A DNA stretch of 30,163 nt, taken from NCBI GenBank assembly GCA_010093815.1, contig ML996574.1; one strand, written 5' to 3'. This document shows, one piece after another, positions 1 to 24,333 of this stretch; the first letter of the stretch is position 1; each line of letters starts with the position of its first letter. Made by a program: the position numbers and the translations under genes. This DNA comes from Pseudovirgaria hyperparasitica (taxonomy: Eukaryota). Under the pieces are notes generated by a model. The model was given only the letters and a program-made list of their open reading frames with translations, searched no databases and was not told the origin of the DNA.

Positions 1-1
1 T

Positions 2-3000
2 GATCGCGATATGCTTTTTAAACCTACGAAAGAGTACCTCTCCGCTACCGGGAAGCGATAAGCCGTAATTTATACGGTAGTTATCGACTCTAGTAGTGGA
101 GGAATCGTAATTAAGAATGACAGAAACGAGACACTCGTAATTCCGAGGAATACGGTGCTCGGTAAAATCCGCGAACTAGACATTATAGAATGCTACTAAA
201 TCTCTAATGCTAACGTAGATCTCGCTACCCTTCCTCCCTTAGAAGCCGTAAATATTAACCCTAAGCTCGAGACTCGTCTCCTAAACGGAATAATGCTCTA
301 TGGTAGGGAAGAGAAGGCTATAAAATATAAAGAACTCATTAAAGAGTTTATAGAGTTATAGCGAGATAAAAAATCTATTATAAACTCTAGGGAAGTAAAG
401 CTTATCCTTATGAAGGACTGGCGCGAACTTAAGAAGTTATATACTAGAGTATATAACGTCGGCCCTCGGGACCGTAAAGCAATTAATAAAACCTTTGACG
501 GGCTTTATAACGACGATAAAATAGGTTAGAGTAAAAAGCCTACCTAATTCGGCTCCCTAGTTTTTATTATCTAGAGAGAGGTCTATGATCCAAAGATAAA
601 TGGGCTGATATGGAAACCACGCGTAGTGATTAACATTAGAGGCCTTAATATAATTACCGTTAAAGATTCCTACCCGTTAATAAGAATGGATGACATACTC
701 TAGGCTAGCCGAGATTGCCACTATATCATAACAATGGACGCTATAAGTATATTCTACTAATGGTTAGTATAAGAAGAAGATCGTGAGTAATTCATGGTAA
801 ACACCTATAGGGGTTAAGAATACCTAAAAGTTCTTACCATAGGCTACGTTAATTTAGTCCAGCACGTGTAACGGGAACTTGATAATCTCCTACGAGAGTT
901 CCCATAGGCGAAAGCCTATATAGACGATATAGTAGTTTTCTCTAAGATATTCGAAGAGTATATTTATCATTTACGGTAACTATAGAGTATACTATTAAAC
1001 TTTAATATGTCTCTCGCCGTAACCAAGACGTTCGTCGGGTATCCAAGTACTATAATCCTTAGAAAAAGAGTTAACGCCTTCGAACTATCTTTAAAGGTAG
1101 AAAGAATTATAGCTCTAAAAGAAATATAGTTTCTAAAAGATACTATAGCGCTTAAACGATACCTAGGAATGGCGGGATATCTACGAGGATAGTTACTATA
1201 CTATACATAGTTAGTCTTACCGTTACTAAAAGCTAGTACTAAGCTCTTCCGCTATGCCCCTCGTAAAAAGACTTAGCGAAAAGTATAGGCCTCGAAAAGG
1301 CCAGTTCCATAGACTAAAGTACTTATCGAATCATTTTAAGCTATATAAGGACTATGGGATAACCCGATCTTCTATTATTACTATAAGCCGGTAAGATATA
1401 CGTTCCTAGACGTCGACGCTTTAAAAGAGTATAGCTTTAGAGTCTTTATGTACCATGTTCGCGGGGACCTAGATCTAGTAATATCGTTAGTTCCGGTTAA
1501 CGATCCTATCGATCCTAACGAGACTAATCTTAATCTACTTAACCCCCTAAGAATATCGTGGCTACGTTAGGTAGAATTATTCCTAAAGGAAGTAATATAA
1601 CTAATATTGTTTCTTAGTAAAGCTATCACGGTAACTAAACGAAACTATTGGCCCATAGAACTTGAAATGGCTGGTCTGGTTTAGTTAGTAACTAAACTTC
1701 GACACTTTATTAAATTATTAGTATAGTTTATTATATTCACGGACCATACCGTAATAACGGCTATTATATATCAGACGAAGCTCTCTAGCATAGCCGCCGA
1801 CTATAAGAATATCCGTCTTATCCGAGTAGCTTAATATCTCTTATAATATAAGCTCGATATCCGATACCGCCCTAGTAGGAACTATATTATGCTAGACGCT
1901 CTTAGTAGGCTTATAAGTACGGCGCCAGCCGTAGAAGGTAATATGCTAGATAAGATCGCATAGGCTTTTACGATCGGTAGCGATAAAGGGATAATTACTA
2001 AACTCACCTACGTCTATTACGTAGTCTTGATTAAAATGGTAGATAAATTCAAGGATCGCCTATAAAAAGCCTATAAAGACGACGAGGCATGGAATAAAGT
2101 ACGCGAAGTACTAATTAAGGAAGATACTCTACGACATGGAGACGAGAACGTACTAATACACGTTAACTTCTCCAAAGGGGAATTGCTACTAAAAGGGAAA
2201 TCACAACCCCTAAATGGACTGAAATTCTTTATAAAAGACGGCATGATTTATAATATCGATCGTGGCAACGATCGTAAGAGGCTATGTATTCCCCATGCCC
2301 TTCTTGGCGAGATCTTTAACGCACTTTACGATCATAGTTTCTATTAAGGCGAGAATAGACTCTATAAGAGAGTGTCTATATCTTTCTACGTACGACATCT
2401 TTCGAAAGAAGTCAAGGCCTATATTAAATATTATAAGTAATGTAATAAGGCGAGGACCTCTCGGTAACAGCTATACGGGAGTTTTACTCCCATCGCGACT
2501 TAGTACGTACTATTTAGAACCATATACCTCGATCTTATCACCGCCCTACCTAAAATAGTAACCGGTTACGACGCTCTAGCGCCTATCATCTATAAAGCTA
2601 CTAAACGAGTGCTGCTCGTTCTAGGACGCACTGACTAGGGCGCTAAAGAATAGGCTAGTCTAATTCTACCAAACCTCGTTAAACACGATTAGGGAATTCC
2701 GGCTAAAATCATTTTAGATAGGGATGCGAGATAGCTTTTAGCCTTCTAGTAAAAGGTCTTTAGCATGCTAGGAGTTAAATTCCTAATGTCCGCCGTATAT
2801 CGTCTATAAATAGACGGCTAGGTAGAGAGAATAAACCAATCTATAGAGATCGGAATTCGTTTCGTGGTTACCGAGAATCCCGACGAAGATTAGGATACCT
2901 ACTTACTATTTCTATAAGGCTTCATGAATAACGCTACGAATGAAACTACTAGCATGTCTCTAAACGAGTAATTATACGGTTTTAAAGTTAAAGATAGCGC

Positions 3001-3633
3001 GGACGTACTACATGAATTGCCTCCTAAAGATTATGAATCGCTCCGTTTAAAGAATAGAGAAATAGCTACCGAAGCTACTAGCTTCGTAGCGGTTATAATA
3101 AAGTACCGATATAATAAGAAGTATAAGCCTCTTCGTCTAAAACCCGGAGCCGAAGTATATCTACGATTATACTACGGTTACCGCGTACACGGGCACGTAA
3201 ATAGGAAGTTCGATATTTAGAGAACCGGTCCGTTTAAAATTTTATAACGTATTAAGGAATAACACGTACGAACTCGACCTTCCGGAGAGCGTGAAAATCC
3301 ACCTAGTAGTATTAGTTAGCTAGCTAGTACTATACCCGCCCGGCACGGATCTATTCGGACGTAACTAGGGCACTAACGAACTACCTAGCGTTTTCGCCGA
3401 AGACGATCTAGACGAATATCCATCTTATGAAATTAAAAGGTTTCTCGACCGACGCTAGAATTAGAATATAAAGAAGAAACAGTACCTAGTTAAATGGAAG
3501 GGCTAGGGTCTAATTTATAACTAATAGTATAATAAAGAAGACCTTGGAGATGCCCGCGAACTTCGAGAGAAATTTAATATAATATATCTAACCTTAAAAA
3601 CGGAGATGAGAAACCGTAAAAGAGGACCTAGAT
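2..3633 (+). pseudogene. pol: Element A pol (RT, RNase H, integrase, chromodomain), RIP-mutated
   Basis: Frame +2: RVVI(D)IRGLN (~620), FY(Q)WLV (~752), YIDDIVVFS (YIDD at 917-928), LDVDA(S)KEY (~1405), NYWP(T)ELEMAGLV (~1643), IFTDH (~1733), DLITALP (~2531), SDRD (~2715), GPFKI (~3226). A +1 frameshift near 3255 is followed by YELDLPESVKIH and the chromodomain YEIKRFLDRR..YLVKWKG(W)G (3426-3530). Track ORF 3017-3220 is an in-frame fragment. Confidence 0.93.
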
Positions 3634-3726
3634 AAAAGGAATTCACAGCCTTAAGTACTAAGAGGCGTTTCTTGCATAGCGTTGAAATCCTAGCTTAGGT
3701 TAGAAACCGAAAGGTTCCTACCTAAG

Positions 3727-4484
3727 ATGGATATAATTCCGAATTATCATTAATTGCATGTATACGTTTCTTTTCGCGTTTACCCTTTAGAAGTACTACC
3801 GTGTAATAAAAGAATTATATTAATAAAAGAATTATATCTAATGTTAAACGTATAATAGTATCAAAGCATTATATCTAATATTAGATACGTCTCTAACCTA
3901 AAAAACACACTTTACCGAAACTACGCCCATGTGTATAACTATTCCAATAATTATATTCCCTAAACATTCGTAGTAATAGTGAGCGAAATAGTATAACGGT
4001 CTAAGAGGAATAGAATCCGTGAACAAAAACACAGCGATATTAATTATTACCGCATACCTACGAGCTTAAATAAATTCTTAACGCATTATAACACGAATTC
4101 CGTGAGGACGATGAAGGAGTAATCTTATAGCACTACATCTATATAGATTAATACTAGGATCTGAGAATGCCCTACTTACTACGCATGTCTCGATCGGCCA
4201 TTAAGTACACGCTATAGACTACCGTTTAGTATCCGTTAGTAGAAATATATTACTATACACGACGACGATAACGAACACGATACTATTTAGTAGTCGAGAA
4301 TATTATCGCTATACTTACTACTATTAGTCCTCTTAATAACGTAAACCTAGTACTAGTAGATATAATCTTAGTAAAAGGAGAATTTACCCTACCGTTAAAG
4401 GAAGGTAGTAATAGTAACGTCACGCTCGCGAACACTCTTACCGCCGAGCTCGATTTACCTTCTACTTACTTATCCTTAACTTAA
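3727..4484 (+). pseudogene. Putative extra ORF2 of element A (~245 codons), unknown function
   Basis: ATG at 3727 in frame 1. Removing the perfect 17-bp tandem duplication (3804-3820/3821-3837) joins it to a protein-like frame-3 reading (TYELK(Q)ILNAL(Q)HEFREDDEGVIL...). One TGA at 4020. The 3' end is uncertain. Confidence 0.45.
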
Positions 4485-4605
4485 CGCGTAACTTATCTTT
4501 CTATCCTCCACCTTAACCTCATAGAGACTCTAGCTTAATAAGTTTTATCTATAATCTTAAATAGTTATTAATTCCTCCTTACTCTTATATCTATAGTATA
4601 TAAAG

Positions 4606-7600
4606 ATAGTACGGAGTAAAGATAATAAAGCTAAAGTCACCTCGGATAAGGAAAACGCCTTAACCCCGCTAAAAACAGTTACTAAGAGAGGTCGTAAGCG
4701 AAAGCCGAAAGGAAATAAAGGTAACGGAGGTTATTTAGCGAGCGAAATTAATAAAGGAAAGACTATAAAGAGTAAGAAGTTACTGATTAAGAAGCCTACC
4801 GCCTTAAAATATAATATAGTTCCTATTATAACTCGAGTGGTATATGGAAAGCACCCTCGCGTAAAAGGAATAATAAGCGGTATTATCGGAACTACATAAT
4901 TAGAAACCTTCCTATTCTATAAAGCGTGTATTAGAATCGACGTAGAATAAAAAGGAAGCTTTAATAGAAGATACAACGAACGAAAACTAGTCTATGATTA
5001 TCCTACCTTAGGAATTATGGTTAAGGGCCTCCGATTTACGATGCTAACTCACGGTATCTACCTTTCTAATAAGTATAAACTCGAGATTTACGTGGTATTG
5101 ATATTCCATAGGAAACTCGATAACATCTTTTACTAGAAGGATATTATAAATAGATTTATAGCGTTATTTTAAGTATTAAAGACTTAGTCTTTAAAGAAAG
5201 TATTGCCTTTTATAACGAAGGAAGGCGATAATTTCTATATTCTACCGCGAAAGCTAGACCCTCCCTATAAAGATAGATGCTTATACTACGATGATAAAGG
5301 AAAGCCGGTTACGGTTAATAGAAAGTTCTACTATCTTACTATCGGTTAGTACGTGCTCTATGAGGAGCGACCGATTCTTACCGACACCAATATTAAGAAT
5401 TCTACCTAGTAGGACCCTTCTCTTCTAAAGTACGGGGTTTATCGTTCGAACATAGAGGTGTCGTAAATAGTATTATATAAGCTTTAATGGATTAACCTCC
5501 TATATAAGGAAGATAAGGGAGTTACGTAGGATCTAAAAGGTCTAACCATGCTACTAAATGTCGCCGTGCTATATCATATTATAATCGAGATAAAAAATAA
5601 GCTTAAGATTATAAGGAAGGGCGAATAAAAGGCGCATAATAAGTATAGTATAAGGCACGGTACTATGCGTTATAATATTCTCGACGGTAGTATAATCTCT
5701 AACTCTAACTATAAATATGAGCCGCCCATGATAGAAGAGAAGGAACCAGTCGTTACATGGTAATATTAGTTAGAATTTTCGGACCTAGGAGCAAATCTAC
5801 ACCGCCTCCGCCTAGGTTTGCTCGCTCTAGTACCTATAGACGAAATTAGATATATTCTAAAGTAAAAAGAATTCTTTATAAAGATTCTAGCTACGGTTTC
5901 TAACGAAGAACTCGAGGAGAGTATAATATCCGCGGACGAGAAATGGAACTTTACCGTCATACTTCTAAAAGGCACGAGATTCGAGGTAGAGTAATCGTCT
6001 AAGAGTAGTATTATCGCGTAGCTCTTAAAACTAGGTAATAGATACTCTATAAAGGAAATAGCTTAAGTAGAATATACGTAGATTCCGGCACGATACTTCG
6101 TAATAGATACCATAGAGGAAATCCGGAGCTACTATAGTCACGCGTGGAATATACTAGTATCTTAGCTATAAGATTTAAATAGTAAGAATATTCGGTACTA
6201 CGCCGTATAGCGAAGGAGGGACGGATTAGTTCAGGTTACTATCGTAGCTTAGTAGTAAAGAGATATCGCCTAGGAATAGGTAATAGAATCTCTAGACTTA
6301 ATCATATAGTAATTATAACATGATTAAGAAGCGACGCTCGTAGCGTACGAATACTAATGATATATCCTCTATAGACACGTAAGATCCTAGCACGTTATAT
6401 AGCGCCTTAAAGGACTTAACGGCAACCATATAATAGTACTATAATCGTCTAGATACTAGTTCTAGTTAATCTACCATCTAAGTTCTCTAGAAGATAAGAC
6501 TAGAATTATAAAAAACGTCCGTGAAGTGCACTTATAGATACTATTAAATAAGGTTATACTCTAAGACTTAGTTTAAAAATAGGGCCTAATAGAGAGCGTA
6601 ATAGTAGACTAGCGTCGAGGAGTAGAAGAAAAGCTACTTAAAGAAGTCCACGCGCTATATATAGAAGATATAGCGCGTATATAGCTAATCTCGGTAGTCT
6701 CTCTTAAAGACCTCGCACGGAAATTCGCCACGGCCTATAAAAAGATGCTATAGTTTATAGATCCTTTGAATTACGGTACCATGAACGACTAGGTAACCAT
6801 GCCGATAATTATTCGAGACGGTTCCCGCGAAGATTAAATTATATAGGGTAGGAAAATTAATAAACTCCTACCACGACACCTGCTTAGTAGATATACTTTA
6901 ACCCTGCCCGAAACCTCTACGTAAACTATCTCTATATAAACTATTACTATAAGCTCACTACCTAGTTTTAATAAAATAGATAACTTTTTCGTGATCGAAG
7001 GATTCACGAATACTAACGAGGTATAGCCAATTATTTTAGTAAGAGAGATCGCTAAGGGACTAAAGGCCGGAGTGTCTATCTTAAACGTCCTGATAAACCT
7101 AACCGAAGGCGTTATTAAATTAAGGATACTGGAAGAAATATAGGCTCTAGTCACGAAGGTAATAGAGGTAATTAAGGTCCTACTCTCTATTATAAAACCT
7201 ATACTAGCTACCGCCGCGAAGAAAGCTAAAATAGTAAAGAAGGCAAAGTTAATTACCGCTAAAATAATAGTATCTAAGGTAGCTTCTATGTTATTAGAAC
7301 TTCCGCCTACCCTAATAGAGCTAACGGAGCTATAATCTACCTTAATTCCCGCGACCTTACCTACCTTAATTCCCGCCGCGTTAACCGCAAACGCTATTAG
7401 TTAATAAGAGGCGGAAATAAACACGCTTATCTTGGCCTACGAGAAAGAGATAAAAGCTTAGATAAAAGATATTATAAGGGAGGCTCTAAAAAGGTTTATA
7501 GTAGAAGTATAAAAGATCGCTGCGTAGAAGATAGCTACGATAGTAGAAACAGCTACGCCCGTAGTAATAGCTACGCCCGCGGTAACTACTACGCCCATAG

Positions 7601-8784
7601 TAGATACTTTATCTAGGAAAGAATTAATTAGGCAAATACTAAGAATCACCGGCTGGATACGAAGATTCATAGAGATAATTATAAACCTATAATATCCTAA
7701 TAGCGTGACGAAAACCATGGAGCGTGCTATGAAAGTAGGCGTATAAGATATTAAAGAAATTATTAGAAGGTACTAGTAATATATCCAAGATAGCTTTAAG
7801 CACCTACTTACTATAAAAGAAGATAAACTATATAAAGCTTCTAACGGAAACGGAATACCCTTTAAAACGCTCTTCGACGAAGTAGCGGCCGCTAGTACTT
7901 ATAATTACTATTCTAAACTTAATAATATTTAGATGGAGATACTAGTTTCTAGAATTCCTACGCTAGAGCATTAGTTTAAGAAACTCCTAGAACGAAACGC
8001 CTAGGAGCTCTTAGACGACAAGGGATCGAGCTTAGATATTAAGCTACTCGAAGTTAGGGAATTAGATACTAATATAAATGACGACCTAATGGAAGTTATA
8101 CACGAAGAAGTAGTCTCGGATAAGTTTAAGAAACAAAGGTAGTAATTTGCAAAGCTCGCGAATACCGACGACTCGGAGTCGGTAAACGAATTCCATGATA
8201 TAGAAGACTCCTAAATGGAAGAAGCCGCTACTAAAACCATGCTACTAGTAGAAACTAATGCCGTAACCGACGTAGATATTAACGTTATTATAAGTGCCGT
8301 AGCCGACGTAGAGATTGACGTTATTACTAGTGCTACGGCCGCTACCGTCGTCGCAAGCGCCGCCGCGGCTATAAATATAGAAACCGTTATTACTCCGATA
8401 CCTATAGTTCCTACTCCTACTAAATCTACTTACTCGAATTAGCTAAGAAAAGACGACGATACGTACGAATGGTCTTAGATCCCTATAGCTATACTAATAC
8501 TATAAATAGATTAAATGAATATAAAAGAAATAAGAGTAATAAGAATAGTACTAAATCGTATATTCGAATACCCTAATAACTAATTCGAAGCTTTCCTCGA
8601 GGTTCACGATAGGCTTTAGACAGTTACTATAAATCTAAAGGTAATAGAAGCTATCCTTACGTAAGAACCGGAGAAACGTAGAGCTATATTATAATAATAC
8701 TATTAATACTTCTACCGACACTTGGGAAGTGACCTCGCGTAGTATCTACGCGAGTATCTAATTAAAGCAAGCCTACTAGAGTGA
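4606..8784 (+). pseudogene. Large extra ORF3 of element A (~1390 codons), unknown function, RIP-mutated
   Basis: A single frame (+1) runs from ATA (probable ATG) at 4606 to TGA at 8782-8784 with no frameshift or intron needed. Internal stops are TAA/TAG except one TGA at 6358. It has a basic N-terminus (KRGRKRKPK), A/T/P-rich linkers and in-frame 18-nt (~7552-7600) and 36-nt (~8260-8331) repeats. Track ORF 8215-8442 is in this frame. Confidence 0.75.
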
Positions 8785-8857
8785 CGGACTTTAGCATCGT
8801 TATAGAAGATATTATCGTTTCGAGTTGATTTATCGTTTCGATTTGATTAGGGGCAGC

Positions 8858-8995
8858 TATTACAGAAAGTGATAAGGAGACGAATAACGGTAAGAACTAT
8901 GGACTAAAGGTCCGATATAGATAGCCGTAGATTCTATGAAGTAGCTAGCAATTAATTTAATACTTGACTAAGACTTAACATCTCTGTCCTTAACA
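8858..8995 (+). repeat. 3' LTR of element A (~138 bp)
   Basis: Begins TATTAC (RIP of TGTTAC) just after AGGGGCAGC and ends CTTAACA. The next base resumes B integrase (AAGTCTATCT, matching element C at 16111). The partner LTR is outside the window. Confidence 0.7.
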
Positions 8996-11710
8996 AAGTC
9001 TATCTACGATAATAAGAATTAAATTATAACTTATTCTAAGTATCTCGCTTAGAGATAAGTTAACTATAAAATCTATAGTAATATCTTCCTATATAAAGAG
9101 GGGGACTAGTAGAGGCTATAAGTTCCTATATAGCTTATATCTAGATGCCTTTATTCTTTAATAAATCGGATAAGTAGCTATCTATTCTTTAATATACTTA
9201 GGTATATCTTCCTAAAAATAGTACTAATAAATTAAGCTTAGGGTGCGTATATACCCGAAATATCCTACTAGGTTAGCGTTATAGTATCGGCTAACTACGG
9301 TAAATCGTGCGTTACCCGTCGGTATATAGTACTTTCTATTATAGTAGAGTAAGCCGTCTATGAAGGTCTACTTATAGTCTACTTTAGTCTATAATAACCT
9401 ATCTTACTATATTTTATATAACTTTAAAACTATTAGGTCTATCTTTTATAGATCTATGATTAACTAGACGAGGTCTACTTAATATATATACTAGGTACTA
9501 TCGCCCTCCTTAATAGCGCTAATAAATAGCTTACTAGGGACTTCGGTACCGCGTCTTTAGTTACCGGCTTCGGTCTTATAAATTTAATTACTAGTATTGG
9601 CGTTAGTATCTTGCTAATTATCGGATAACTTATTATCTAACCTCGTCCTTAAGAGTTAGGCCTATAGCTACTCTAGGACCCTATAGCTACTATAAATCTA
9701 GGCGCCTTCTTTATAGTTAGATCTTCTTAATATTCTATTAGCTAGGTTTATACTTCTAGGTTAATAGTAGATTATAAAGTAGAAATTTATAAGCTACTTA
9801 GTCTATTAAATCTATCGATGATTTAAAACTATCGTACTTATAAACCCCTTTAAGTTATAGTAATTAGTTAGTAACTTAACGTTATATATAGTACCTTTAA
9901 GATAATATCGCTACTACTTAAACGACTCTACTATTACTAGTAGCTCTTAGTTATAAATAGTATATCTAGTCTTAACGTCGGCTATCTTACGCGAGAAGAA
10001 CGTAACTAGATACTATTAGATCTTTTTAGACTCTATTAGTCTAGGCTAGGAGAGTATACCCGAGATTATAAATTCTAATATATTAGTTTCGACGTAAATA
10101 GGTTTAGTTAGATCGAAGTATACTAGTAATAGGATAGTTATAAATGCTTCTTTAATCTTCTTAAAGGATATTCTTTTAACCTTAGTTAATTTAATAGGTT
10201 ATAATTTAATATTATACTATTTCTATCTACTACGGACCGTAATAGATAAGTTAGTAGTAGTAGTACGTGTATTAAGTAGTGCGGCTAAACGGGAGAAGTG
10301 TTTAATAAATTTTTAGTAGTAGTTAGCGAAGCTAATAAAGACACGTATATCTCGAACGGATTTTAGTTTAGGCTAGTCTATAATAGTAGTAACTCTATCT
10401 CTCTCTATAGTTATACCTTAATTAGTAATAACGAAGCTAAGAAAGTTAATATAGTTCTAATAGAACTTATATTTAGATAGCTTAATATATAGCTTATACT
10501 TTTCTAGTCTATCTAGAACTATACGTACGTACTAGATATACTCCTCCTCGTTATCTAAGAAGATAAGAATATTATCTAGATATATAATATATATCGTGTT
10601 AAGTAGGCCTACTAGCGCGTTATTAATATACGCTTAGAAGGTATCTAGCGTGTTAGTTAGTCTAAAAGAGACTATAGTATACTTAAAGTATCTATAACGG
10701 GTTCTAAAAGCCGTTTTCTATTCGTCGCCTTCCTTAATATAAAGGTAATAGTAGGTGTTACGTAGATTAAGCTTAGTAAAGATCTTTATATATTCTAGTC
10801 TATTAATAGACTCGGAGATAAGAGATAGTAGGTAATAATTCTTTCGCGTAATATTATTTAGGCTATAGTAGTTAATATATAGACGGAGACTCCTATCCTT
10901 CTTCTTTATAAAGAGGATTAGAGCTCCGGCTAGAGATATACTAGGCCTAATCTATTCTTATATAAGGTTCTTTTCGATATATTCTCGAAGGGCTTATAAC
11001 TTAGGTTCTAAAAGAGGGTAGATAGGTCTATATAGAGGTTACTAGCCGTCTTCAAGATTAATAGTAAGGTCAGTAGATTAGTATTAAGGTAGTTCAGAGG
11101 AATCGATCGCTAACGCGATATATTAGTATATTTTATACTAATATAGTAGGTTTTCATCTACTTTAATACTAAGCTTACTATTTTACATAAGTAAGAGTAC
11201 ATAGATAGTAGAGATCGCCTTCTCGTAATCTTTCTAGAATTATTCATTATTAATAAGCTATACTAGTTCCTATTAAGGTGGGTTTATACGCTAGCCAGCT
11301 ATCTTCTTAAGGAAGTCTAGTTTTAGGTTATATTTCTTAAGCCACAGTATACCTAGAATTATATTAAAGGGACTATCTACCACGATAAAGGTTAAGTAGT
11401 AGAGTTTCTATTTCCCTCCGCTATCCTAGATACTATATTTAATAGTATAGGTACTATATAACTTAATAGGACCGTCAATACCATAGAATATAGTATCTAT
11501 TAGAGCTTAGATATTAACATTAAGTTCTTATACTTATTAGATCAATATAACATTAGTAGCCAAACTACTATTAAGTATTATAGTCTAATATTATCCACGA
11601 GGGACCTTAATAGATCTAGTCTATAGTTTAATATACTATTTAGTAGATTACCCCTCTATTATAATCGCGTCTATAAGTCGCGAGGGTTTCTTATAGACTA
11701 TTAGTTTTTT
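8996..11710 (-). pseudogene. pol: Element B pol (protease, RT, RNase H, N-terminal integrase), truncated by the A insertion
   Basis: Minus strand gives GLL(D)TI(C)I(V)YLD(D)ILIF (~10560-10610) and ..ILIIVDRL at the 8996 junction. It aligns by eye with C 16111-18825. Confidence 0.92.
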
Positions 11711-12434
11711 ATATTCTATACTAGATAGTTAGGCGCGATATGTCCTAGCTACTAGTACTTATAGTATATAACTAGTTAGTTAGTTATATTAGTACTTAGT
11801 AGCTTCCCTAAACGGTACTTAGGTACTATATAGTCTATTCTACTATAGGTATAGTAAGTAACTTTAGGTTGTTTATATAAGTCGGTCCTTATATCTTAAT
11901 ATATTAATTAGTAGGGAGACCCACGATACGATCTACGTGGTTTTAAATTTAAGGTATAGTAGTAGCCTCGTAACGTCCCGCGAGATCTATTACTAAATCG
12001 GTTTTAGTTAGACGATTTTACATTAGATTAGATCGTTAGGGATAGTCGTGCACTAGCACGGCGTTAATTATTTATTATACGCTAGTATTACTCCGCGAGG
12101 TTTATAAGAGCTTAGAGGTCTATAGGGATTATTATTATAAGGTTAAGACGGTCCTTTATATTTAGGGTAAGAGACCGTTTAAAGTCGTCGTACTATTAAA
12201 TTATATAATCTTCTTCGGGTTCTCTCTAGAGGGGCCGAAGGTATTTAAGAAGTTATAATAGTAACTAATTATCTCGTTATTAAGTCTTAAAGATATAGCC
12301 CTAGGCCTAGTCGCGTCGTTTAGCCCTATCGCTAAAATATTAAAGGATAAATTTAGTAAACGTGTCCTAGTTATAGGCATCCTTAGAATATTTAATTCGG
12401 TGTACTATCTAACGTTCTAAAGGCGTCGGGTTAA
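11701..12434 (-). pseudogene. gag: Element B gag, C-terminal part with CCHC zinc knuckle
   Basis: De-RIP reading CYKCQQPGHIAPNC at ~11725-11768, followed by AAAAAAC-TAA at 11710-11701. Confidence 0.85.
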
Positions 12435-12672
12435 TGTAAAGAGTGAAGACGTGGGATAGTAGTCTAACAGTTTATAGAGAGATATAGGAATGTATTTATA
12501 GAGTAATCTCACTCTTATACGAGGTTGATTTCTAACGAGTAGGAATCGGTTTATACGGTCTACTTATATAGTAACCTCGCTTAACTTAGCTAACTTAACC
12601 TAGCTCTGGCCACTACGTGGCTACATGGATTAGAATAGTCTATATAGATCTATTATAGTTCCCGTCCTAATA
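12435..12672 (-). repeat. Element C 3' LTR
   Basis: TGTAAAGAGTG...CCCGTCCTAATA, a direct repeat of 20240-20477 differing by RIP-type transitions. Confidence 0.96.
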
Positions 12673-12689
12673 ATATCCTTCTTCTTTTT
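12673..12689 (-). promoter_or_regulatory. Polypurine tract of element C
   Basis: Minus strand AAAAAGAAGAAGGATAT immediately precedes the 3' LTR. Confidence 0.8.
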
Positions 12690-13016
12690 ATACTTCGCCC
12701 CGAAGTACTTAAGTATATATAATTCTAAGTCTCTATAATCTATCGTGTACCTATATATCCGTAACTAAGTTCCTATAACGTTATAACCATCCTTAATATA
12801 GGTGAACTCGAGATTCTAGTTTACTTTTACTAGTTTATGCACGCGCTTATCCCTTACTTTATAGCTACTACCTAGGACACGTAATTACTACTTTAGTCGA
12901 GCATATATTTAGCTTCGCTCGCCTTTAATTTTATTCTCTAGTATATCCACCTTACTCTTAAGGTAAGTCGTTAATTTATATACTATCTTCCCTAGTCTAG
13001 GTTTAGAAGGGTCTAT
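12673..13016 (-). pseudogene. Putative small sense ORF (~115 codons) upstream of the C 3' LTR
   Basis: ACC-ATA(ATG)-GAC start at 13016, reading MDPSKPRLGKIVYKLTTYLKSKVDILENKIKGERS...YFGAKYKKKKD with only TAA/TAG stops. No recognisable domain. Confidence 0.4.
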
Positions 13017-13151
13017 GGTAGTCTATTCTTATTAGAACCGGTCTAATATAACCTATTCGCGTTGTTACGGTCACTGATTTAGCTTTATTAATCGCCGTTA
13101 AGGGTGGACGAATATTCCTTCCTTAGATCTCTAGCTAACGTGTATATATAG

Positions 13152-14464
13152 ATATCTAATACTAGTTCTATCTCTAAGCCTACCTCCTTCTCTCGTAAGA
13201 CTTACTCTAAAGGCATCGCCGCCTCCCTAGCTACGCCGGCTAAGAAGCCTACCTATCGCGGTAGCACGAAGGCGCGCTCTAAGTCGGAGAAGAGAGTAGC
13301 TAGGGCTACTACTACTACTGCCTCTACTACTAATATAGCTACTAGTCGCTCTAATCTAGGTAATTCTAGTACTAAACTTATGGATAAAGTGGTTATAGGT
13401 TCTCCTCTCACTCTAAAGCGTACGCCGCCTACTCTACCTCCTCTAGAGGATAAAGAAGATCTCGTTATAGACGATGATCGTAAGCCCTCGCGCTTACCTA
13501 CGCCACCGCCTCGCCGCTCTTTCTTCCGGTCTAATATAGACTAATTTAGTCGCTCTAGGTCCTTTTAGGACCTTAATATTCGCTCTAAACCCTAGCCTAC
13601 TAATAATAAGGCCTAGGTCGCTAAGAATACTAAACCTAGTCGCGGTTTACGCTATAGAAAAACGGCGAACTACGGTTTAATATACTATAAGTATATTAAG
13701 AGCTATACGGCCGGCTCTAAATATCTCTTTCGCTCTAACTCTAGTATTAGCTACTACTCTACTAACCGCGACGGGCCTATACGCCCTATCTTTACTCTAC
13801 CTACCCGCTACCGCCGCTATACCGTGACTAGTAAGACTTATCTATAGGTAAGTATAATAGGCTATCTTAATCTAGTATAATCTAAAGTGGTCCGTACTAA
13901 TATATTCTTAGGTTCCTATACGTATATAAGATATATATAATAACCTTCGTGTCTATAAGACCCTCGGGGGTTCTTATAGCCGCCTATCTACTATATAGAG
14001 GGAGTTTAGGGAGCGCTATAAGCTCTTCCTAGAGGTTATTAAAGTATAAGTTACGAGTACGTTAATTGTTTTTAACACCTATTGATTTTTCTAGCCGCCG
14101 CGAGATCCCTAGCGCCTAGGCTACCTATTCTAGGGAGTCTATTCTAGCTATAGAGGCCGTAGAGAGGATTTACTCTATCTCCCCCTATCCGTCTTACGCT
14201 ACTAATAGATCTTATAAGAGGTCTACTATTTCTCCCTCTAAGTCGCCTCGTAAGAGGGTATATATTCCCTTCTAGATTATTCTAGATTATATTAGCTAAC
14301 TTTAGACCTAGTCGCTACGCTCCGGCGCTTAAGGCTCTTCCCTCTAGGCTCTAACGGATCGGGTTATTACTCTAGAGGCTAAGGTTATTATCCTCCGCCG
14401 CTATATCGTGTAGTTAGAGAGGACTATACTAGAGATTAGAACGGATAATAAGATAGAGGAGTAG
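13152..14464 (+). pseudogene. Antisense four-exon gene inside element C, Cys-rich Zn-cluster-like protein with C-terminal coiled coil (~383 aa de-RIPed)
   Basis: Exons 13152-13847, 13912-14045, 14095-14257 and 14306-14464 total 1152 nt and stay in frame. Introns: GTAAGT..TACTAAT..TTAG (64 nt), (G>A)TAAGT..CTAG (49 nt), GTATAT..GCTAAC..TTTAG (48 nt). De-RIP motif MCHKCVKSY..EC..RCRRCTVTGKTCLQ|VP. Confidence 0.8.
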
Positions 14465-15068: not shown

Positions 15069-18000
15069 CTACGGTATCCTTCTTCTTTTTACGATAACCG
15101 CGACGTCGCTATACTTATATTAATAATATACTATTCTATATCTTTTACTTATACGTAGCCATTATAGAACTTAAGATATATACCGCTAGTTTCTAGGTGT
15201 TCTTATTCTTAGTATAGTTCTTCTAACGGATTCTATATTTCTAAACACCGTCTTCATCGATCCTATATTCGATAATATGGTCTACTTCGAACACGTCTAG
15301 TCTATCTTAGGGTATAATAGAGTGTAACTACACGTTCGTGCGGCTATACACGTTAGGTCGAAATCTTTTAAGTAGTAAGACGTGGAATATATTATAGATT
15401 CTTATATTACTTTCTAAGTCGAGCTCGTAGGCTCTTATACTAATGCGACGTTTGATTCGGAAGGGACTAGCCATTTTATAATTAAGCTTCTTATTTACTC
15501 GCGACGTTTATATATTATAGATATTAAGAAGAACCTCGTCGCCCTTCTCGTACGTCTAATCCTTAGCTAATCTATTATAGTACTTTATATACGAGTTATT
15601 TACTTATTAGATTATAGCGTGATAGTTATATATAGTTTCGAAGATTTTAATCGCTAATTCCTAAGCGTAGACGTTCACGTCTATTATTCGATTAAATTAG
15701 ACCGTCTAAGGCTTAAAACCTATCCTTAGACTACGTCCGAGGTTCGCCTAGAAAGGTGTAATATCTATTATACTATAACGACTATTATTATATATAAACT
15801 CTACTATGCTTAGTAGGGAGGCCTAGTCGTCCTACTCGAAATTATAGAATACGTGTAGGTAGGCCTCGAGCGTCTAGTTCTATCGCTCTATCTAGCTATC
15901 TATCTAAGGATAAAATACTATAGATATGTTCCTATTTATACTTACCATTTTATAGAATAACGTCTAGAATTTAGATATGAAGGTACTTCCTCGGTCCGTA
16001 ATAATCCTTTTTAGTATACTATAGACCTTAATAATCTCGTTCTAGAACACCTACGCTAGTTTTTTAGATGTAATCGTCTTCTACACCGGGATATACCTAG
16101 ATATCTTTATAAGTCTATCTATAATAATAAGAATAGAATTATAACTTATTCTAAGCATCTCGCTTAGAGATAAGTTAACTATAAAGTCTATAGTAATATC
16201 TTTCTATATAAAGAGGGGGGCTAAAAGAGGCTATAAATTCCTATATGGCTTATGCCTAGGGGCCTTCGTTCTTTAATAAATCGGATAAGTAGCTATCTAT
16301 TCTTCGACGTACTTGGGTATATCTTCCTAAAAATAGTACTAACGAATTAAGCTTAGGGTACGTATATACCTAAAGTATCCTACTAGGTTAGCGTCATAGT
16401 ATTAGCTAACTATATTAAATCGCGCGTTACCTATCGGTATATAGTACTTTCTATTATAGTAAAGTAAGCCGTCTATAAAGGTCTACTTATAGTCTACTTT
16501 AGTCCGTAATAACCTATCTTACTATATTTTATATAACTTTAAAACTATCGGGTCTATCTTCTATAGATCCACGATTAACTAGGCGAGGTTAATTAGATAT
16601 TCATGCTAGGCATTATCGCCCTTCCCGATAGCGCTAATAAACGGCCTACTAGGGACTTTAGTACCGCGTCTTTAGTTACCGGCTTCGGTCTTAGAGATTT
16701 AATTACTAGTATCGACGTTAGTATCTTACTAATCGCCTAATAACTTAAAATCTAACCTCATCCTTAAGAGTTGGGTCTATAGCTACTCTAGGACCCTATA
16801 GCTACTATAATTCTAGGCGCCTTCTTTATAGTTAGGTCTTCTTAATATTCTATTAGCTAGGTTTATACTTCTAGGTTAATAGTAGATTATAAAGTAAAAG
16901 TTCGTAAGCTACTTAGTCTATCGGACCTATTAACGGTTTAAAACCGTCGTGCTTATAAACCCCTTTAAGTTATGGTAATTAGTTAGTAACTCGACGTTAT
17001 ATATAGTATCTTTAAGATAATATCGCCACTATTTAAACGACTCTACTATTACTAGTAGCTCTTGGTTATAGATAGTATATCTAGTCTTAATATCGACTAT
17101 TTTGCGTGAGAAGAATATAACTAGATACTATTAGACCTTTTTAGACTTAGTTAGTCTAGGCTAGAAGAGAATACCTAAGATTATAAATCCTAACGCGTCG
17201 GTTTCGACGCGGATAGGTTTAGTTAGATCGAAGTGTACTAGTAATAGGGCAGTTATAAATGCCTCTTTAATTTTCTTAAAGGAGGCCCTTTCGCCTTCTA
17301 ATAATTCTATAGGCTACGATTTAATATTACGCTATTTCTATCTACCGCGGACTATAATAGACGAATCTATAGTAGTAGTACGCGCGTTAAGCGGTGCTAC
17401 TAGCCGGGAGAAATGCTTAATAAATTTTTAGTAGTAATTAGTGAATCCGATGAAGACACGTATATCTTAAACCGATTTTAGTTTAGGCTAGTCCACGATA
17501 GTAGCGACTCTATCCCTTTCTATAGTTATACCTTAATTAGTAATAACGAAGCTAAGGAAGTTAACGTGGTCCTAGTGGAACTTATATTTAGATAGCTTAA
17601 TATATAGCTTATATTTTTCTAGCCTATCTAGGACTACGCGTACGTGCTAGATATATTCTTCTTTATTATTAGAGAAGATAAGGATGTTATCGAGGTATAC
17701 GATGCACGTTATATCGAGTAGGCCTACTAGCGCGTTATTAATATACGCTTAGAAGGTTCCTAGCGCGTTAGTTAGTCTAAAAGGGACTACTATATACTTA
17801 AAGTATCTATAACGGGTTCTAAACGCCGTTTTCCACTTATCGCCCTTCTTAATATATAGGCGGTAGTAGACGTCGCGTAGATTAAGCTTAGTAAAGATCT
17901 TCATGCGCTCTAGTCTATTAATAGACTCGGAGATAAGAGGTAGTAGGTAATGATTCTTTCGTATAATATTATTTAGGCTATAGTAGTCGATATATAGATA

Positions 18001-18825
18001 GAGACTCCTATTCTTCTTCTTTATAAAGAGGATTAGAGCTCCGGCTAGGGATATACTAGGCCTAATCTATTCTTATATAAGGTTCTTTTTAATGTATTCT
18101 CGGAGGACCTATAGCTCGGGTTCTAATAGAGGGTATATGGGTCCGTGTAGGGGTTATTAACCGTCTTCGAGGTTAATAGTAAGGTCGGTAGGTTAGTATT
18201 AAGGTAATTCGGACGAGTCGATTACTAACGCGATATATTAGTATATTTTATACTAATATAGTAGGTTTTCGTCTACTTTAATACTAAGCTCTCTATTTTA
18301 AGTAAGTAAGAGGACGTAGATAGCGGAGATTGCCTTTTTATAGTTCTTCTAGAATTATTCGTCGTCGACTAGCTATACTAGGTTCTATTATAGTAGGTAT
18401 ATGCGCTAGCCAGCTATTTTCTAGATAAAGTCTAGTTTCGGGTTATATTTTTCGAGCTACGGTATACCGAGGATCATATTAAAGGGACTATCTACCACGA
18501 TAAAGGTTAAGTAATAGGGTTTCTACTTCCCCCCGCTATCCTAGATACTATATTTAATAGTGTAGGTACCCTACGATTTAATGGGACCATCGATACCATA
18601 GAAGGTAGCACCTATTAGTACTTAAATATCGACGTTAAGTTCTCGTGCTTATTAAGTCGATATAACGTTAGTAGCTAAACCGCTATTAAGTATTACGGTC
18701 TAATATTATCTATAAGGGACCTCGATAGGCCTAGCCTATAGTTTAATATACTAGTTAGCTAGTTATCCCTCTATTTTAGTTACGCCTACGAGTCGTGAGG
18801 GTTCCTTATAGATAGTTAGTTTTTT
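15069..18825 (-). pseudogene. pol: Element C pol (PR, RT, RNase H, IN, chromodomain)
   Basis: LLDITCIVYLD(D)ILIFS (~17670-17722), an integrase core, and the chromodomain DVFEVDHIIE..KYRIR(W)KNY..T(W)(E)(P) at ~15200-15297. The true stop is uncertain and may lie further on. Confidence 0.93.
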
Positions 18826-20222
18826 ATATTATATACCGGGTAGTTAGACGCGATGTGTCCTAGCTACTAGCACTTATAGTATATAACTAACTTAGTATCT
18901 ATATTAGTATTCGGTGGTTTCCCTAAGCGGCATTCGGGTACTATATGGCCTATCCTACTATAGGTGTAGTAGGTGACTTTAGGTCGTTTATACGAGTCGT
19001 TTCTCGCGTCTTAATATATCGACTAGTAGAAAGATCCGCGGTATAGGCCTCGTCTTCTCGAGTTCGTAGAGTGGTAGCGCCCACGAGGTGTTCCGTGCGA
19101 TCTATTACTAAACCGGTCCTCTTTAGACGATTTCGTATCGGATTAGATTAATAGGGATAGTCGTGCGCCTATATAACGTTAGTTATTTATTATACGCTAA
19201 TGTCATTCTATAAGATTCGCGAGTGCCTAAAGGTTAGTAGGGATAGACATTATAAGGTCGATACGTTCCTTTATACTTAGGTTAAGGGACCTTTTAAAGT
19301 CGTCGTATTATCGAACCATATAATCTTCCTCGGCTTCTCTCTAAAGAGATTAGAGGTATTTAAGGAGTTGTAACGGGGATTATCTCTCTCGCTATTAAGT
19401 CTTAAAGATATGGCTCTAAGTCTATTCGCGTCGCTCGGCTCTGTCGCCGAAGTATTAAAGAAGGAATTCGGTGAACGTGTCCTAGTTATACGTATCCTTA
19501 GGGTGTTTAATTCGATGTACTATCTAACGTTTAGATAGCGTTAGGTCTAGGTAGTTCTATACGAACCTAATCTTATTACTATCGTTCGTGAATAGGTAGA
19601 AGAATTAGCTATACTAGTAAGCCTATTCGTGAAAGCTCCTCCTGGTTTTACCGTCGAAGTAAGGTAGTTTCTTAGGCTAAGGTAACTAGAATAGTAATGG
19701 ACTTGGTTGGACTGTTTCGGCTTAAGTTAGTCTATATTAGTATAGGTTAGTTACTACTAGTACTAAAGCGCGTAGTGCGGCTTCGAGTCTAGCGGTTCGT
19801 TCTTACGCTTTGTCGAGTTTACGAAGTTACTACTCGAGCTAAGCCTAACGCTACCTCTCCGCGTATAGCTTAGTATATACATTATTATAAGGCGTAGTTA
19901 ACGTTAGTCGGTTCTAACGAATTAATTCGTTAACGTTAATAGGGTCTAGTCTTATAGTAAGGATAGGTCTAGTATAGTATAAACTAGACCGCGATGGAGT
20001 ATAATAGACTCCTTCCTTATTATCTAGGTAATCTTCCACGGTTATACGGAATGCCATACTAGTTATTAGTATAATAGCCTATAGGGTATACTTATCGGTA
20101 GAGGTGGTCGTAGGGAGACTATTCTCTTTATTTAGATTTAGAGAGAGTCTCTCGTATAAGGTAGTACCACGGGTATTATAGCGTATAGTAGAAGCTATCT
20201 CTATAAGCTACCGTCGTGCTAT
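18816..20222 (-). pseudogene. gag: Element C gag with CCHC zinc knuckle
   Basis: ATA(ATG)-GCA-CGA-CGG start 18 nt from the 5' LTR, knuckle CYKC..PGHIASNC at ~18840-18883, and AAAAAAC-TAA at 18825-18816. Confidence 0.88.
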
Positions 20223-20239
20223 ATAGAGAGGAATTAAAA

Positions 20240-20477
20240 TGTAAAGAGTAAAGACGTAGGATAGTAGTCTAATAGTTCATAGAGAGACATAGGAATGTAT
20301 TTATAGAGTAATCTTACTCTTATACAAGGTTGATTCCTAACGAGTAGGAATCGGTTTATGCGGTCTACTTATATAGTAACCTCGCTTAACTTAGCTGACT
20401 TAACCCAGCTCTGGCCACTACGTGGCTACATGGATTAGAATGGTCTATATAGGTCTATTGTGGTTCCCGTCCTAATA
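20240..20477 (-). repeat. Element C 5' LTR
   Basis: Direct repeat of 12435-12672, with a minus-strand TATATAAG box at 20375-20368. Confidence 0.96.
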
Positions 20478-21156
20478 GTTAAGGTAGTTCTAGACGAATC
20501 TAATTTTATCGCTATTATTTATAAATAGATAGAAGAATTAGCTATATTAGTAAGCCTATACGTGGAAACTCTTTCTACTTTTACTATTGAAGTAAGGTAG
20601 TTTCTTAGGTTAGAGTAATTGGGATAGTAGTAGACTAGAATGGATCGTTTTAGTTAGTATAGGTCTATATAAATATAGATTAGTTATTACTAGAACTAAA
20701 GCGCGTAATATAGCTTTAAGTCTCGTAGTATATTCTTAAGCTTTATCGAGTTCGCGTAGTTATTACTTAAGTTAAACCTATTATTACCTCTCTTCGTATA
20801 GTCTAGTATATACGTTATTATAAGATATAGTTAACGTTAGGCGATTCTAACGGATTAACTCGTTAACGTTAATAAGGTCTAGCCTTATATTAAGGTTAGA
20901 TCTAGTATAGTTTAAACTAGACCGAGATAGAGTATAATAGACTCTATCCTTATATTTCTATAATATCTTCTATAGTTATATAGAATATTATATAAGTTAT
21001 CGGTGCGATAGTCTATAAGGTATAGTTATTAGTAGGGGTAGTTATAGATAGACTATTCTCCTCGTTTAGGTTGGGAGAAGGTCTACTATAAGAGGCGGTA
21101 CTATGAGTATTATAATAAGTGGTTAGAGCTATTTTTATAAACTACCGTCGTGCTAT
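20478..21156 (-). pseudogene. gag: Element B gag, N-terminal part
   Basis: Colinear with C ~19545-20222, with the same ATA-GCA-CGA-CGG start at 21156. Confidence 0.88.
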
Positions 21157-21173
21157 ATAAAGAGAAATTAAAA

Positions 21174-21659
21174 TATAAGGATTATAGACGTAGAATAGTA
21201 GTCTAATAGGTCATAGAAGGATTCGGGAATATATTTAAAAGTGTAGTCTACTCTTCTAATAAGGTTAATTTCTAAAGAGTAGGAATTAAGTGTATACGGC
21301 CTACTTATATAGTGGTCTCGCTTATTCTAGCTAGCTTAACCTAGGTCTATGTCAGGGCTAACACCAGGATAGACTCAACTATAATACTATGGTCTAGTAC
21401 GGTCCGTAACAGGACGGACCCAGGGTGAGTTAGCTAGAATAAGCGAGACCACTATATAAGTAGGCCGCACACACTTGATTCCTACTCTTTAGGAATTAAC
21501 CTCGTTAGGAGAGTAGACTACCCTTTGAAATATATTCCCGAATCCTCCTATAACCTGTTAGACTACTATCCTACGTCTACAATCCTTATAGTCCACCTAT
21601 TACGGACCGTACTAGACTATAGTAGTCTAGTTAAGTCCATCCTAGTGTTAGCCCTAATA
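21174..21659 (-). repeat. Element B 5' LTR, split by an inverted solo LTR (pieces 21174-21349 and 21591-21659)
   Basis: TATAAGG(TGTAAGG)...GCCCTAATA. The two pieces together are the reverse complement of 21350-21590. Confidence 0.9.
21350..21590 (+). mobile_element. Solo LTR of the B family (241 bp), opposite orientation
   Basis: TGTCAGGGC...AATCCTTATA flanked by GTCTA (21345-21349) and GTCCA (21591-21595), a 5-bp TSD differing by one RIP change. Confidence 0.9.
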
Positions 21660-22669: not shown

Positions 22670-22897
22670 TGTAAGAATAGGGTTATTGGATAGTAGTATA
22701 GTTAGATAGAACAATAGGGTATATTCTATTATAGAACGAATTACTACCGAACCCTTTCGGTAGGAATCCGAGAGTATATACATAAAGGGACGCCGATCTA
22801 TCTAGCATGTAACTATTTACTACCCTTTACGTTACCTCCTAACCCTATTAGCTAAGGTATATATAGGTTAGGTCCTACCTAAGGCTAAGTCCTAATA
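22670..22897 (-). repeat. Element D 3' LTR
   Basis: TGTAAGAATAGG...GTCCTAATA, preceded on the minus strand by the PPT AGAGGGAAGGGATAAT. Confidence 0.95.
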
Positions 22898-23349
22898 ATT
22901 ATCCCTTCCCTCTAGGAAGCTACCCTTAGCGACCTAGATTATTATCTATCTCTATATCCCTATCCTAAGTCTCGTAAGATCTTAGTTATTCTCTACGCTT
23001 CGTCTTAGATACTTACTAATATTTACTAATCTAAGATTTATATAAGCGTTTTCCTAATAAACTAGATTTTATCTATCTTAACTTCTTATATAGGTAAGAT
23101 TACCTAATTAGGCCTAGCGTATCACGTAATATAATTAGGTAAGCCCGGGTACTACCTATATTAAAATCTTTTCTTAGAAATATTCCTTTCTTTAAAAAAC
23201 TTCTTAACTCTTTATAGAGTTTTTTAGATTATTAGATATATTACCCGATCCTTATAGATATAGATTTATATAATTTACTAATTTTTATACCGTCCTTAGC
23301 TAGTAATAATATAATTCATAATAATCCGTATAAATTAATAATAATTATA

Positions 23350-24333
23350 ATATAGTTTCCTAAAATCTCGACGCTCTAAAGTAATTAGCGCGGAAATAGG
23401 CGTCTTTAAATAATCCCTATCTCGTATATATTACCGATATATTAAAAGCTATTAATCTACCCTAACCTAGGCCGGGCTCTAATAATCTAGCTATATATTA
23501 TTATAGTTATCGCTTTCTATTATATATTACTTACGGTAGTACTAAATCTATAATATACGGTACTTATATAACTAAGAAGCGTTATTACTTATAGATATTT
23601 AAGTAAGTTCGAAGAACTTTACGTAGATTTACTTATATTAGTATAGATTACTACTAGGCCTCTAGTAACCCCTACTAATAAGGAGTATAGTACTACCGAT
23701 CGTAACGCCTTAGAGAAGGCTTTCTACGAGCTATATATCTAAGGTAAGGATTACGCCTAGGAGTACGATTCTAATAAGATCCGTAAGGATTTATCGGAAT
23801 CTACTATAGCTATTATTACCGCGATTACTAGGTAATATCATTTTTCTCGAATCGTTATAGATTCTTACTAATATATATTAATCTCTATAATAGTGCTAAA
23901 ATCTCTACTACTTCGGACTTCTTTCTATATACTAGCGATATTAAAATTCCTAGAAAAGGTTCTAGTAAAAAGGCTAAGGTTCCTTCCTCGCGTGTGCTAA
24001 AGAGCTATAAATTTAGGGAAGATAGCTCTAATCTAGAAGTTTCTATACTAAAGGTATGTGGTTCTATACCGATCGTTAAATCTTTTTACTAATTTATATA
24101 ATTCTTAGCGTGCCCACGCCGGTCCGTCCCTCTCCGTCCCGGGTCCCGCCGCTCTATAGGTTTCTATAGAGGAGTTTATAGCTATAAGGCGCGCTATATA
24201 GAATTTATAGCGTCGGAACGAAAGGCTAGAGACTTATATTATAAAGCTCTATACTATACTAAATAAGAACTAGCGGAAGGAATCAGATATAACCATCACG
24301 GTAATTAGTACTTCTACTCCTACTCCGACTTAA
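23350..24333 (+). pseudogene. Antisense spliced gene inside element D, putative homolog of the element C antisense gene
   Basis: De-RIP RMCHRCVKSY (23423-23452) and CGTC.TKKRHCLQ (23556-23594), with one +1 frameshift near 23460. Introns at ~23595-23646 (donor mutated or uncertain), 23832-23893 (GTAATA..TACTAAT..TAG) and 24054-24108 (GTATGT..TACTAAT..TTAG). The last exon is coiled-coil-like (EEF.A.RRA.(Q)NL(Q)RRNERLE). Start codon not defined. Confidence 0.72.

Follow-up and report, generated by a model that had tools for sequence, protein, structure and literature searches.

The window studied here, that is, the whole stretch of 30,163 nt from contig ML996574.1 of the Pseudovirgaria hyperparasitica assembly GCA_010093815.1, consists throughout of AT-rich repeat DNA of the type produced by repeat-induced point mutation (RIP). 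Its first 9 kb, which we call block A, begin inside the pol gene of a retrotransposon that we assign to Ty3/Gypsy (element A). A spacer of about 1 kb follows, and downstream of it, on the same strand as pol, lies a further reading frame at 4606-8784. Block A meets a second Gypsy element (element B) at 8996. An earlier note, made from the letters alone, had described the extra frame as a large orphan gene of element A, situated where an env gene would be expected. The features of the locus are collected in Table 1.

The usual thresholds for RIP are about 0.89 for the ratio TA/AT and about 1.03 for the index (CA+TG)/(AC+GT). Every 1-kb bin of the window gives a TA/AT of 1.4-2.1 and an index of 0.07-0.48. 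Within block A (1-9000), TA/AT ranges over 1.42-1.76 and the index is uniform at 0.28-0.48; it steps down to 0.08 at 9001 and takes values of 0.07-0.31 beyond. We also aligned contigs from two sequencing runs (X1 and X2, both from one sample that may be the source of the sequence) to the stretch at a likeness of at least 80%. The differences among copies in X1 comprise 358 C>T, 379 G>A, 239 A>G and 311 T>C changes, and between 2 and 20 of each type of transversion. Block A is a RIP-mutated repeat, and the extra frame is RIPed like pol, as had been claimed. Two other runs with the same species label contain next to none of the stretch, and among the listed sequencing runs there is no RNA dataset that contains it. 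No open reading frame (ORF) of 150 aa or more is present in the whole window, nor does Rfam at gathering thresholds report anything in it.

The frame 4606-8784 contains 80 in-frame stops among its 1393 codons (40 TAG, 38 TAA and 2 TGA), and nowhere does it run for more than 97 codons without a stop. It is a decayed coding frame and not an open one. The single intronless frame of 4.2 kb reported earlier survives as coding-like statistics that hold to one phase, but what carries them is a relic, perhaps of two ORFs. In 1000 shuffles of the sequence that preserve dinucleotide content, the same frame receives 131.6 ± 10.4 stops, so that the observed count lies 5 standard deviations (SD) below expectation; only 0.5% of shuffles reach 80 stops or fewer in any of the six frames. 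This depletion resembles that of pol, which is known to be coding and whose 1086 codons contain 48 stops against 91.8 ± 8.5 in shuffles.

Three-base periodicity in the extra frame is strong (chi2=153, p=1.9e-30), and it keeps one phase through 4606-6000, 6001-6900 and 6901-8400, with chi2=148 over the last of these segments. Codon position 1 is rich in purines (A.38, G.27) and position 2 is poor in G (.11), a pattern identical to that of pol. Under a codon log-odds model trained on the RIPed pol of element A, the extra frame scores +132.7 bits, and the other five frames score between -121 and -356. An independent codon model, derived from the pol copies of the other Gypsy element, gives +49 bits for the same frame and -56 to -299 for the other five.

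The amino acid composition shows where the stops are likely to have come from. Stops make up 5.7% of the extra frame, glutamine 0.3% and tryptophan 0.4%; the corresponding values in RIPed pol are 4.4%, 0.5% and 0.6%. For an un-RIPed reference we use P0001, a gag-pol-chromodomain protein of 2056 aa labelled Chlorociboria aeruginascens, in which glutamine and tryptophan account for 3.7% and 1.0% of pol and for 5.9% and 0.8% of gag. The sum of stops, glutamine and tryptophan in the extra frame (6.4%) compares with 4.7% and 6.7% of glutamine plus tryptophan in these two segments. In pol, moreover, 14 of the 45 aligned stops stand opposite a glutamine or a tryptophan. Thus, the stop load of the extra frame is as expected from RIP acting on an ordinary ORF.

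One might suppose that there is no gene at all, and that these signals arise from the composition of non-coding DNA altered by RIP and from the short tandem repeats in it. Such a view could appeal to the 80 stops, to the lack of a start codon, of any homologue and of a confident fold, and to the fact that a minus-strand frame of the region is stop-poor as well, with 69 stops. It fails to account for a stop depletion of 5 SD, for a periodicity (p=2e-30) that reaches well outside the repeats, and for the rejection of five of the six frames by models built independently on two RIPed pol genes; neither the spacer nor the 3' end, which have the same composition, shows any of these signals. We regard it as very improbable. 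As to the minus-strand frame itself, it scores -329.8 bits under the codon model, and antisense depletion of this kind is a by-product pattern that is also seen in pol. A gene on the minus strand, for which a 188-codon open stretch at 6834-7400 was the candidate, was rejected on the same grounds, since all minus frames score between -121 and -356 bits.

The assignment of element A rests on its pol. When the plus strand of 1-3600 is translated with X at stops and scanned against Pfam, the domains come in the Gypsy order of reverse transcriptase (RT), RNase H and integrase: RVT_1 (E=1.4e-05, 25.4 bits, under its cutoff of 29.6 bits), RT_RNaseH (E=2.1e-09, 37.9 bits against a cutoff of 24.8) and Integrase_H2C2 (E=9.9e-06, 26.0 bits against 25.5). 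Chromo is matched weakly (E=0.035, 14.5 bits, under its cutoff of 25.1 bits) and in another frame than the rest of pol. In a search of 5.8 billion proteins, in which 7996 candidates were scored and nine matches returned, the best match of pol is P0001 (phmmer, E=2.5e-135, 29% identity, 91% query coverage), a protein with Chromo (PF00385) among its precomputed Pfam domains. By tblastn, residues 854-1948 of P0001 align to 2-3259 of the window (E=4e-126). The window begins inside pol, at P0001 residue 854, and the gag, protease (PR) and 5' long terminal repeat (LTR) of the element lie outside it. Judged by sequence, pol ends at about 3590-3630, and element A classifies as a Ty3/Gypsy element of chromovirus type, with a chromodomain closing pol; Pfam, tblastn and the match to P0001 all agree with the earlier note here.

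The reading frame of pol shifts between 3259 and 3267, the integrase part being in frame 2 and the chromodomain part in frame 3. Gaps of 1 nt occur at 3253 and 3255 in other genomic copies, and therefore the frame change is probably an indel specific to this copy.

The limits and inner structure of the extra frame can be followed by measuring codon log-odds in windows of 300 nt. The coding signal begins at 4606: the 300-nt window starting at 4456 is negative, and that starting at 4606 scores +11.6. The frame does not open with an ATG; ATA codons stand at 4600 and 4606, and either could be a former ATG changed by RIP. In the stop-dense stretch that separates the two coding-like blocks, 21 of the 100 codons of 6163-6463 are stops, three of them consecutive (6250-6258), and a TGA occurs at 6358, yet periodicity stays in phase over 6001-6900. 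This stretch may be a glutamine- and tryptophan-rich linker turned to stops by RIP, the boundary of two ORFs that share a phase, or decayed non-coding DNA. Past it the signal resumes, fades after about 8500 and is gone by 8650, and the true original stop may have been earlier than 8782. The in-frame repeats noticed earlier are present. Their units (18, 24 and 36 nt) and the gaps by which other genomic copies differ in the repeat region (6, 18 and 36 nt) are all multiples of three; at 7524-7608 the gaps are of 18 and 36 nt.

Table 1. Features of block A and its junction with element B, in window coordinates.
Feature	Position	Strand	Basis or remark
Element A pol (RT, RNase H, integrase)	2..3259	+	5' truncated by window edge; RIP-degraded; Pfam, tblastn, phmmer
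C-terminal end of pol with chromodomain	3267..3584	+	P0001 residues 1951-2054 (its last 104 residues), tblastn
Spacer, about 1 kb, no coding signal on either strand	3650..4596	.	Periodicity, codon models, stop counts, Pfam
First coding-like block, basic N-terminus	4606..5950	+	Log-odds positive in every 300-nt window, 4606-5806
Stop-dense stretch, same phase	5956..6400	+	Negative codon log-odds
Second coding-like block, with short in-frame tandem repeats	6400..8500	+	Log-odds positive under the model trained on element A pol, windows 6406-8356
Repeat units 24 nt apart	7337..7383	+	Repeat searches
18-nt (6-codon) tandem repeat, 3-4 copies	7524..7608	+	Repeat searches
36-nt (12-codon) tandem repeat, 2 copies, 86-87% alike	8259..8333	+	Repeat searches
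Nominal stop TGA (the only other in-frame TGA is at 6358)	8782..8784	+	Codon listing
3' terminal non-coding stretch of block A, possible 3' LTR	8785..8995	+	Ends ...CCTTAACA
Element B, a second Gypsy family of much higher abundance, interrupted in its integrase at 8996	8996..12274	-	tblastn, repeat, junction alignment, depth

What the extra frame would have encoded can be described only in outline. Its first 100 residues include 26 lysines and arginines against 5 aspartates and glutamates, and the stretch KRGRKRKPK is present among them. The earlier note had seen this basic N-terminus correctly, but the nuclear accessory protein it derived from it draws on that N-terminus and nothing further; a nucleic-acid-binding or nuclear role is a reasonable guess and no more, given that RIP itself changes GAA to AAA. 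We find no signal peptide in the product, and no credible membrane span across its 1393 residues: the sole 19-residue window that reaches 1.6 on the Kyte-Doolittle scale contains charged residues. Hydrophobic spans are absent even though RIP inflates isoleucine, leucine and valine. A classical Env product is unlikely on these features, and hydropathy agrees with the earlier opinion on this point.

It is important to ask whether the extra frame belongs to element A at all. It had been placed between the pol chromodomain and a polypurine tract and 3' LTR; the frame does lie downstream of pol on the same strand, but a non-coding spacer of about 1 kb intervenes. The spacer has no three-base periodicity (p=0.4), is negative in all six frames under both codon models, and shows no stop depletion over 3650-4605, the counts being as in shuffles; Pfam finds nothing in its three plus frames up to E=10 or in its three minus frames up to E=1. 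One reading of this arrangement is a composite repeat, in which element A ends with an LTR somewhere in 3640-4600 and 4606-8995 is a separate multicopy sequence, either a degenerate element or a duplicated gene, that was amplified or assembled together with it. P0001 indeed stops right after its chromodomain (at about 3584), an ordinary Gypsy element has its polypurine tract and 3' LTR directly after that point, the lack of coding signal in 3650-4600 is what an LTR would show, and the LTR proposed at 8858-8995 is without a partner for comparison.

Several observations speak for a single unit instead. The summed depth of contigs stays level from pol through the spacer to the ORF, at about 1,700-3,000 in X1 and about 2,900-6,000 in X2 in all 22 bins up to 8800, including across 3600-4800; past 8800 it jumps to 42,000-98,000 in X1, a rise of 20-40 fold. 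Single contigs are about 170-250 deep, which suggests roughly ten diverged copies. The contigs are 80-99% alike, and the copies differ almost only by transitions. That the frame is multicopy together with the element, as the earlier note held, accords with this flat depth. Contigs from other copies bridge 4604-4728 and 8782-8850, the latter continuing for at least 95 nt on the shorter side. Around the ORF, a sensitive repeat search finds no terminal inverted repeats (TIRs), no LTRs of its own and no other terminal repeats, only short AT-rich chance matches. A nested element bounded by TIRs or LTRs was rejected on this account, and, as regards terminal repeats, the earlier note's own test for an independent insertion comes out in favour of its reading. 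Nor does a second copy of any part of 1-9000, or an LTR pair, occur within the window (blastn at word size 7 gives chance matches of at most 35 nt, E≥0.005). Taken together, the flat depth, the bridging contigs, the uniform RIP index over 1-9000 and the absence of bracketing repeats favour one repeat unit, with an LTR that is unverified.

The composite reading meets further difficulties in the content of the region. Pfam, applied to both strands and to six separate segments up to E=10, has no match outside pol, so that 3600-8995 contains no transposon-class domain on either strand. Four Gypsy gag-pol proteins are unmatched in 3585-8995 (tblastn, E≤1), and there is no repeat shared by the spacer and 8500-8995 that would point to a nested LTR element. 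We therefore judge a composite to be rather unlikely. The same tblastn result disposes of another candidate, in which the ORF would be the gag and protease of a following tandem copy; no RT follows it.

At its 3' end, block A terminates in CA at 8995, and similarity to a second copy of element B starts exactly at 8996. That second copy runs uninterrupted through the integrase where block A breaks the first. Block A thus appears to sit in, or to abut, a broken element B integrase, with a canonical CA end, a position consistent with A having undergone less RIP than B and hence being the younger of the two. Candidate LTR starts of the form TRTTA occur at 8687, 8810 and 8858, with no clear polypurine tract before any of them, and 8858-8995 is a possible 3' LTR of 138 nt. 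No match to 8500-8995 is found elsewhere in the window, and the 5' end of the element falls outside it.

We consider it probable, on balance, that the extra frame is an element-borne accessory ORF downstream of pol in a long Gypsy element. A number of points weigh against this interpretation, however. The stretch 5956-6400 scores as non-coding and carries an in-frame TGA, and the basic character of the N-terminus may be inflated by RIP, which turns GAA into AAA and hence glutamate into lysine. The product has no detectable relative: phmmer with 4606-8205 returns no match at E≤0.001 among 1.84 billion representatives, a word-indexed search with all 1393 residues returns none at E≤0.1 among 7999 scored candidates, a PDB sequence search returns none at E≤1, and Pfam, env families included, returns none up to E=10 for the frame in three segments. 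AlphaFold2 without an alignment gives no usable fold: the mean predicted local distance difference test (pLDDT) is 32.5 over 4606-5949, modelled as a mixture of strands and helices, and 37.1 over 6901-8400, modelled as helices throughout, and neither value is high enough for a fold search. Contig depth cannot rank the parts of a stretch, and this makes the argument from equal copy number only a moderate one. Finally, both the 5' end and the LTR of the element lie outside the window, so that a position inside the element is only probable, and an LTR might be concealed within the 1-kb spacer.

The failure of all these searches also bears on a different origin for the frame, namely that a cellular mRNA, hence an intronless one, was acquired by template switching during reverse transcription and was then RIPed along with the element. 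Retroelements usually carry transduced sequence at the 3' end of their internal region, and a long intronless sense frame in just that place, with a copy number and a RIP level equal to those of pol, is what such a capture would leave. A conserved host gene, however, should stay detectable. The equally RIPed pol is found at E=2.5e-135 with only 29% identity, and the extra frame matches nothing in 1.84 billion proteins or in Pfam, which argues against a conserved host gene. A captured gene seems improbable to us. The same results suggest that an accessory protein of element A, if that is what the frame encoded, was fast-evolving, lineage-restricted and possibly largely non-globular.

Under the accessory-ORF interpretation, positions 1-8995 would be the 3' part of one long Ty3/Gypsy LTR retrotransposon of chromovirus type. 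Adding about 2.6 kb of gag and protease, as judged from P0001, and an LTR, the total length would extrapolate to roughly 12 kb. After pol and the spacer of about 1 kb would come a sense-strand coding region of about 1,150-1,390 codons, either one ORF with a glutamine-rich linker or two consecutive ORFs. The product would be an accessory protein specific to the element and not an Env, with a basic N-terminus that may have bound nucleic acid or directed the protein to the nucleus, followed by a mixed alpha/beta region and then by a long helical C-terminal half that bears the repeats. Its expression may have relied on a sub-genomic RNA, spliced or internally initiated, that made use of the spacer. 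The whole element, including the extra ORF, would have reached roughly ten copies before RIP inactivated it, changing glutamine and tryptophan codons to TAA and TAG and probably ATG to ATA. The present copy is non-functional. More tentatively, and with a confidence that falls somewhat short of an even chance, we propose the fuller description of an ascomycete chromovirus family of about 12 kb with an integral, lineage-specific sense gene of at least 1,150 codons, whose non-Env product has a basic N-terminus, a helical, repeat-bearing C-terminal half and no relative in 1.84 billion proteins.

In the rest of the window, at least three copies of element B lie on the minus strand, at 8996-12700, 15214-20480 and 24867-27917, with RT and integrase matches to proteins P0002, P0003 and P0006; at the junction, residues 1619-1721 of P0001 align to 9337-9008, and P0002 and P0003 align to 10951-9764 (tblastn). 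RIP has affected element B more heavily than A (index 0.07-0.25), and the summed contig depth of B is 20-40 times that of A. The copies at 8996-12274 and 16111-19389 are co-linear with a constant offset of 7115 nt, at 89% and 73% identity in 300-nt pieces, and the repeat pair 12433-12672 and 20238-20477 (94%) is offset by 7805 nt. The difference between the two offsets points to about 690 extra nt in the second copy, or to shared LTR-like ends.

Further repeats lie in this part of the window. A tandem duplication at 19549-21237 has a period of about 933 nt, with 19549-19848 repeated at 20482-20781 and 20031-20303 at 20965-21237 (74-76% identity). An inverted repeat at 21174-21655 has arms of 174 nt (21174-21347 and 21417-21590) that are 90% complementary and 69 nt apart, with a second, 60-nt pair adjoining; its arms also match 12437-12611 and 20242-20416 in inverted orientation. 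Between two B copies, 13001-14000 has a GC content of 0.42, against 0.30-0.38 around it, a GC skew of -0.16 and the highest TA/AT in the window (2.13). Near the 3' end of the window, the direct-repeat pairs 22672-22899 and 29736-29963 (90%) and 23889-24091 and 29961-30163 (97%) may be the LTRs of a third B-type copy or of another element.

Large extra ORFs between pol and the 3' LTR, often past a non-coding stretch, are familiar from the plant Tat/Ogre and Athila lineages and from the env of errantiviruses. These belong to a different kingdom and to different pol clades from element A, and the extra frame here lacks the signal or transmembrane features of env-like ORFs. Within fungi, the earlier note is broadly right that gag and pol are normally all that a Gypsy element encodes, but exceptions have been published (PMC2864245, PMC8365987). 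In their survey of 25 fungal genomes, Novikova et al. (2010; PMC2864245), who also note the env-like ORF of Athila, give Gypsy elements of 4.4 to more than 13 kb, some with an "add. ORF" of unknown function. As there described, these elements resemble A in being fungal Ty3/Gypsy elements with a PR-RT-RH-Int-chromo organisation and an extra ORF; on this comparison, which is by description only, element A differs in that its extra region is as long as pol and is dead from RIP. Porquier et al. (2021; PMC8365987) mention, with reference to Zhao et al. (2011), an extra gene, brtn, in BcGypsy1 (Boty) of Botrytis cinerea, together with other annotated extra ORFs in Botrytis Gypsy families. Boty, like element A, would be an ascomycete Gypsy with a gene beyond gag and pol, but brtn is antisense, to go by the title of Zhao et al. 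(2011), whereas the frame here is sense; this comparison too is one of descriptions. RLG_Rolly of Leptosphaeria maculans is given by Rouxel et al. (2011; PMC3105345) as a RIP-affected Ty3/Gypsy of 11,875 bp with 235-bp LTRs, present in 594 copies in AT-rich isochores. From that account its likeness to element A is one of size only (about 12 kb extrapolated), sequence identity being untested, and its copy number looks higher than the roughly ten-fold stacking of element A.

The arrangement at this locus is a known but rare one, and what is unusual here is the extra coding length together with the lack of any relative. To our knowledge, few LTR retrotransposons of fungi carry extra genes, and these have almost never been characterised. 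The present copy is dead; what it offers is a pointer to the family, in which an intact relative could be looked for. If our interpretation is true, the frame would represent a new family of retroelement accessory proteins of the size of pol, and it would go some way towards explaining why certain RIP-affected fungal Gypsy families reach almost double the usual length. The presence of an accessory gene of this size would imply an undescribed function in the life cycle of these elements, for instance in entering the nucleus, in targeting chromatin or in countering silencing by the host.

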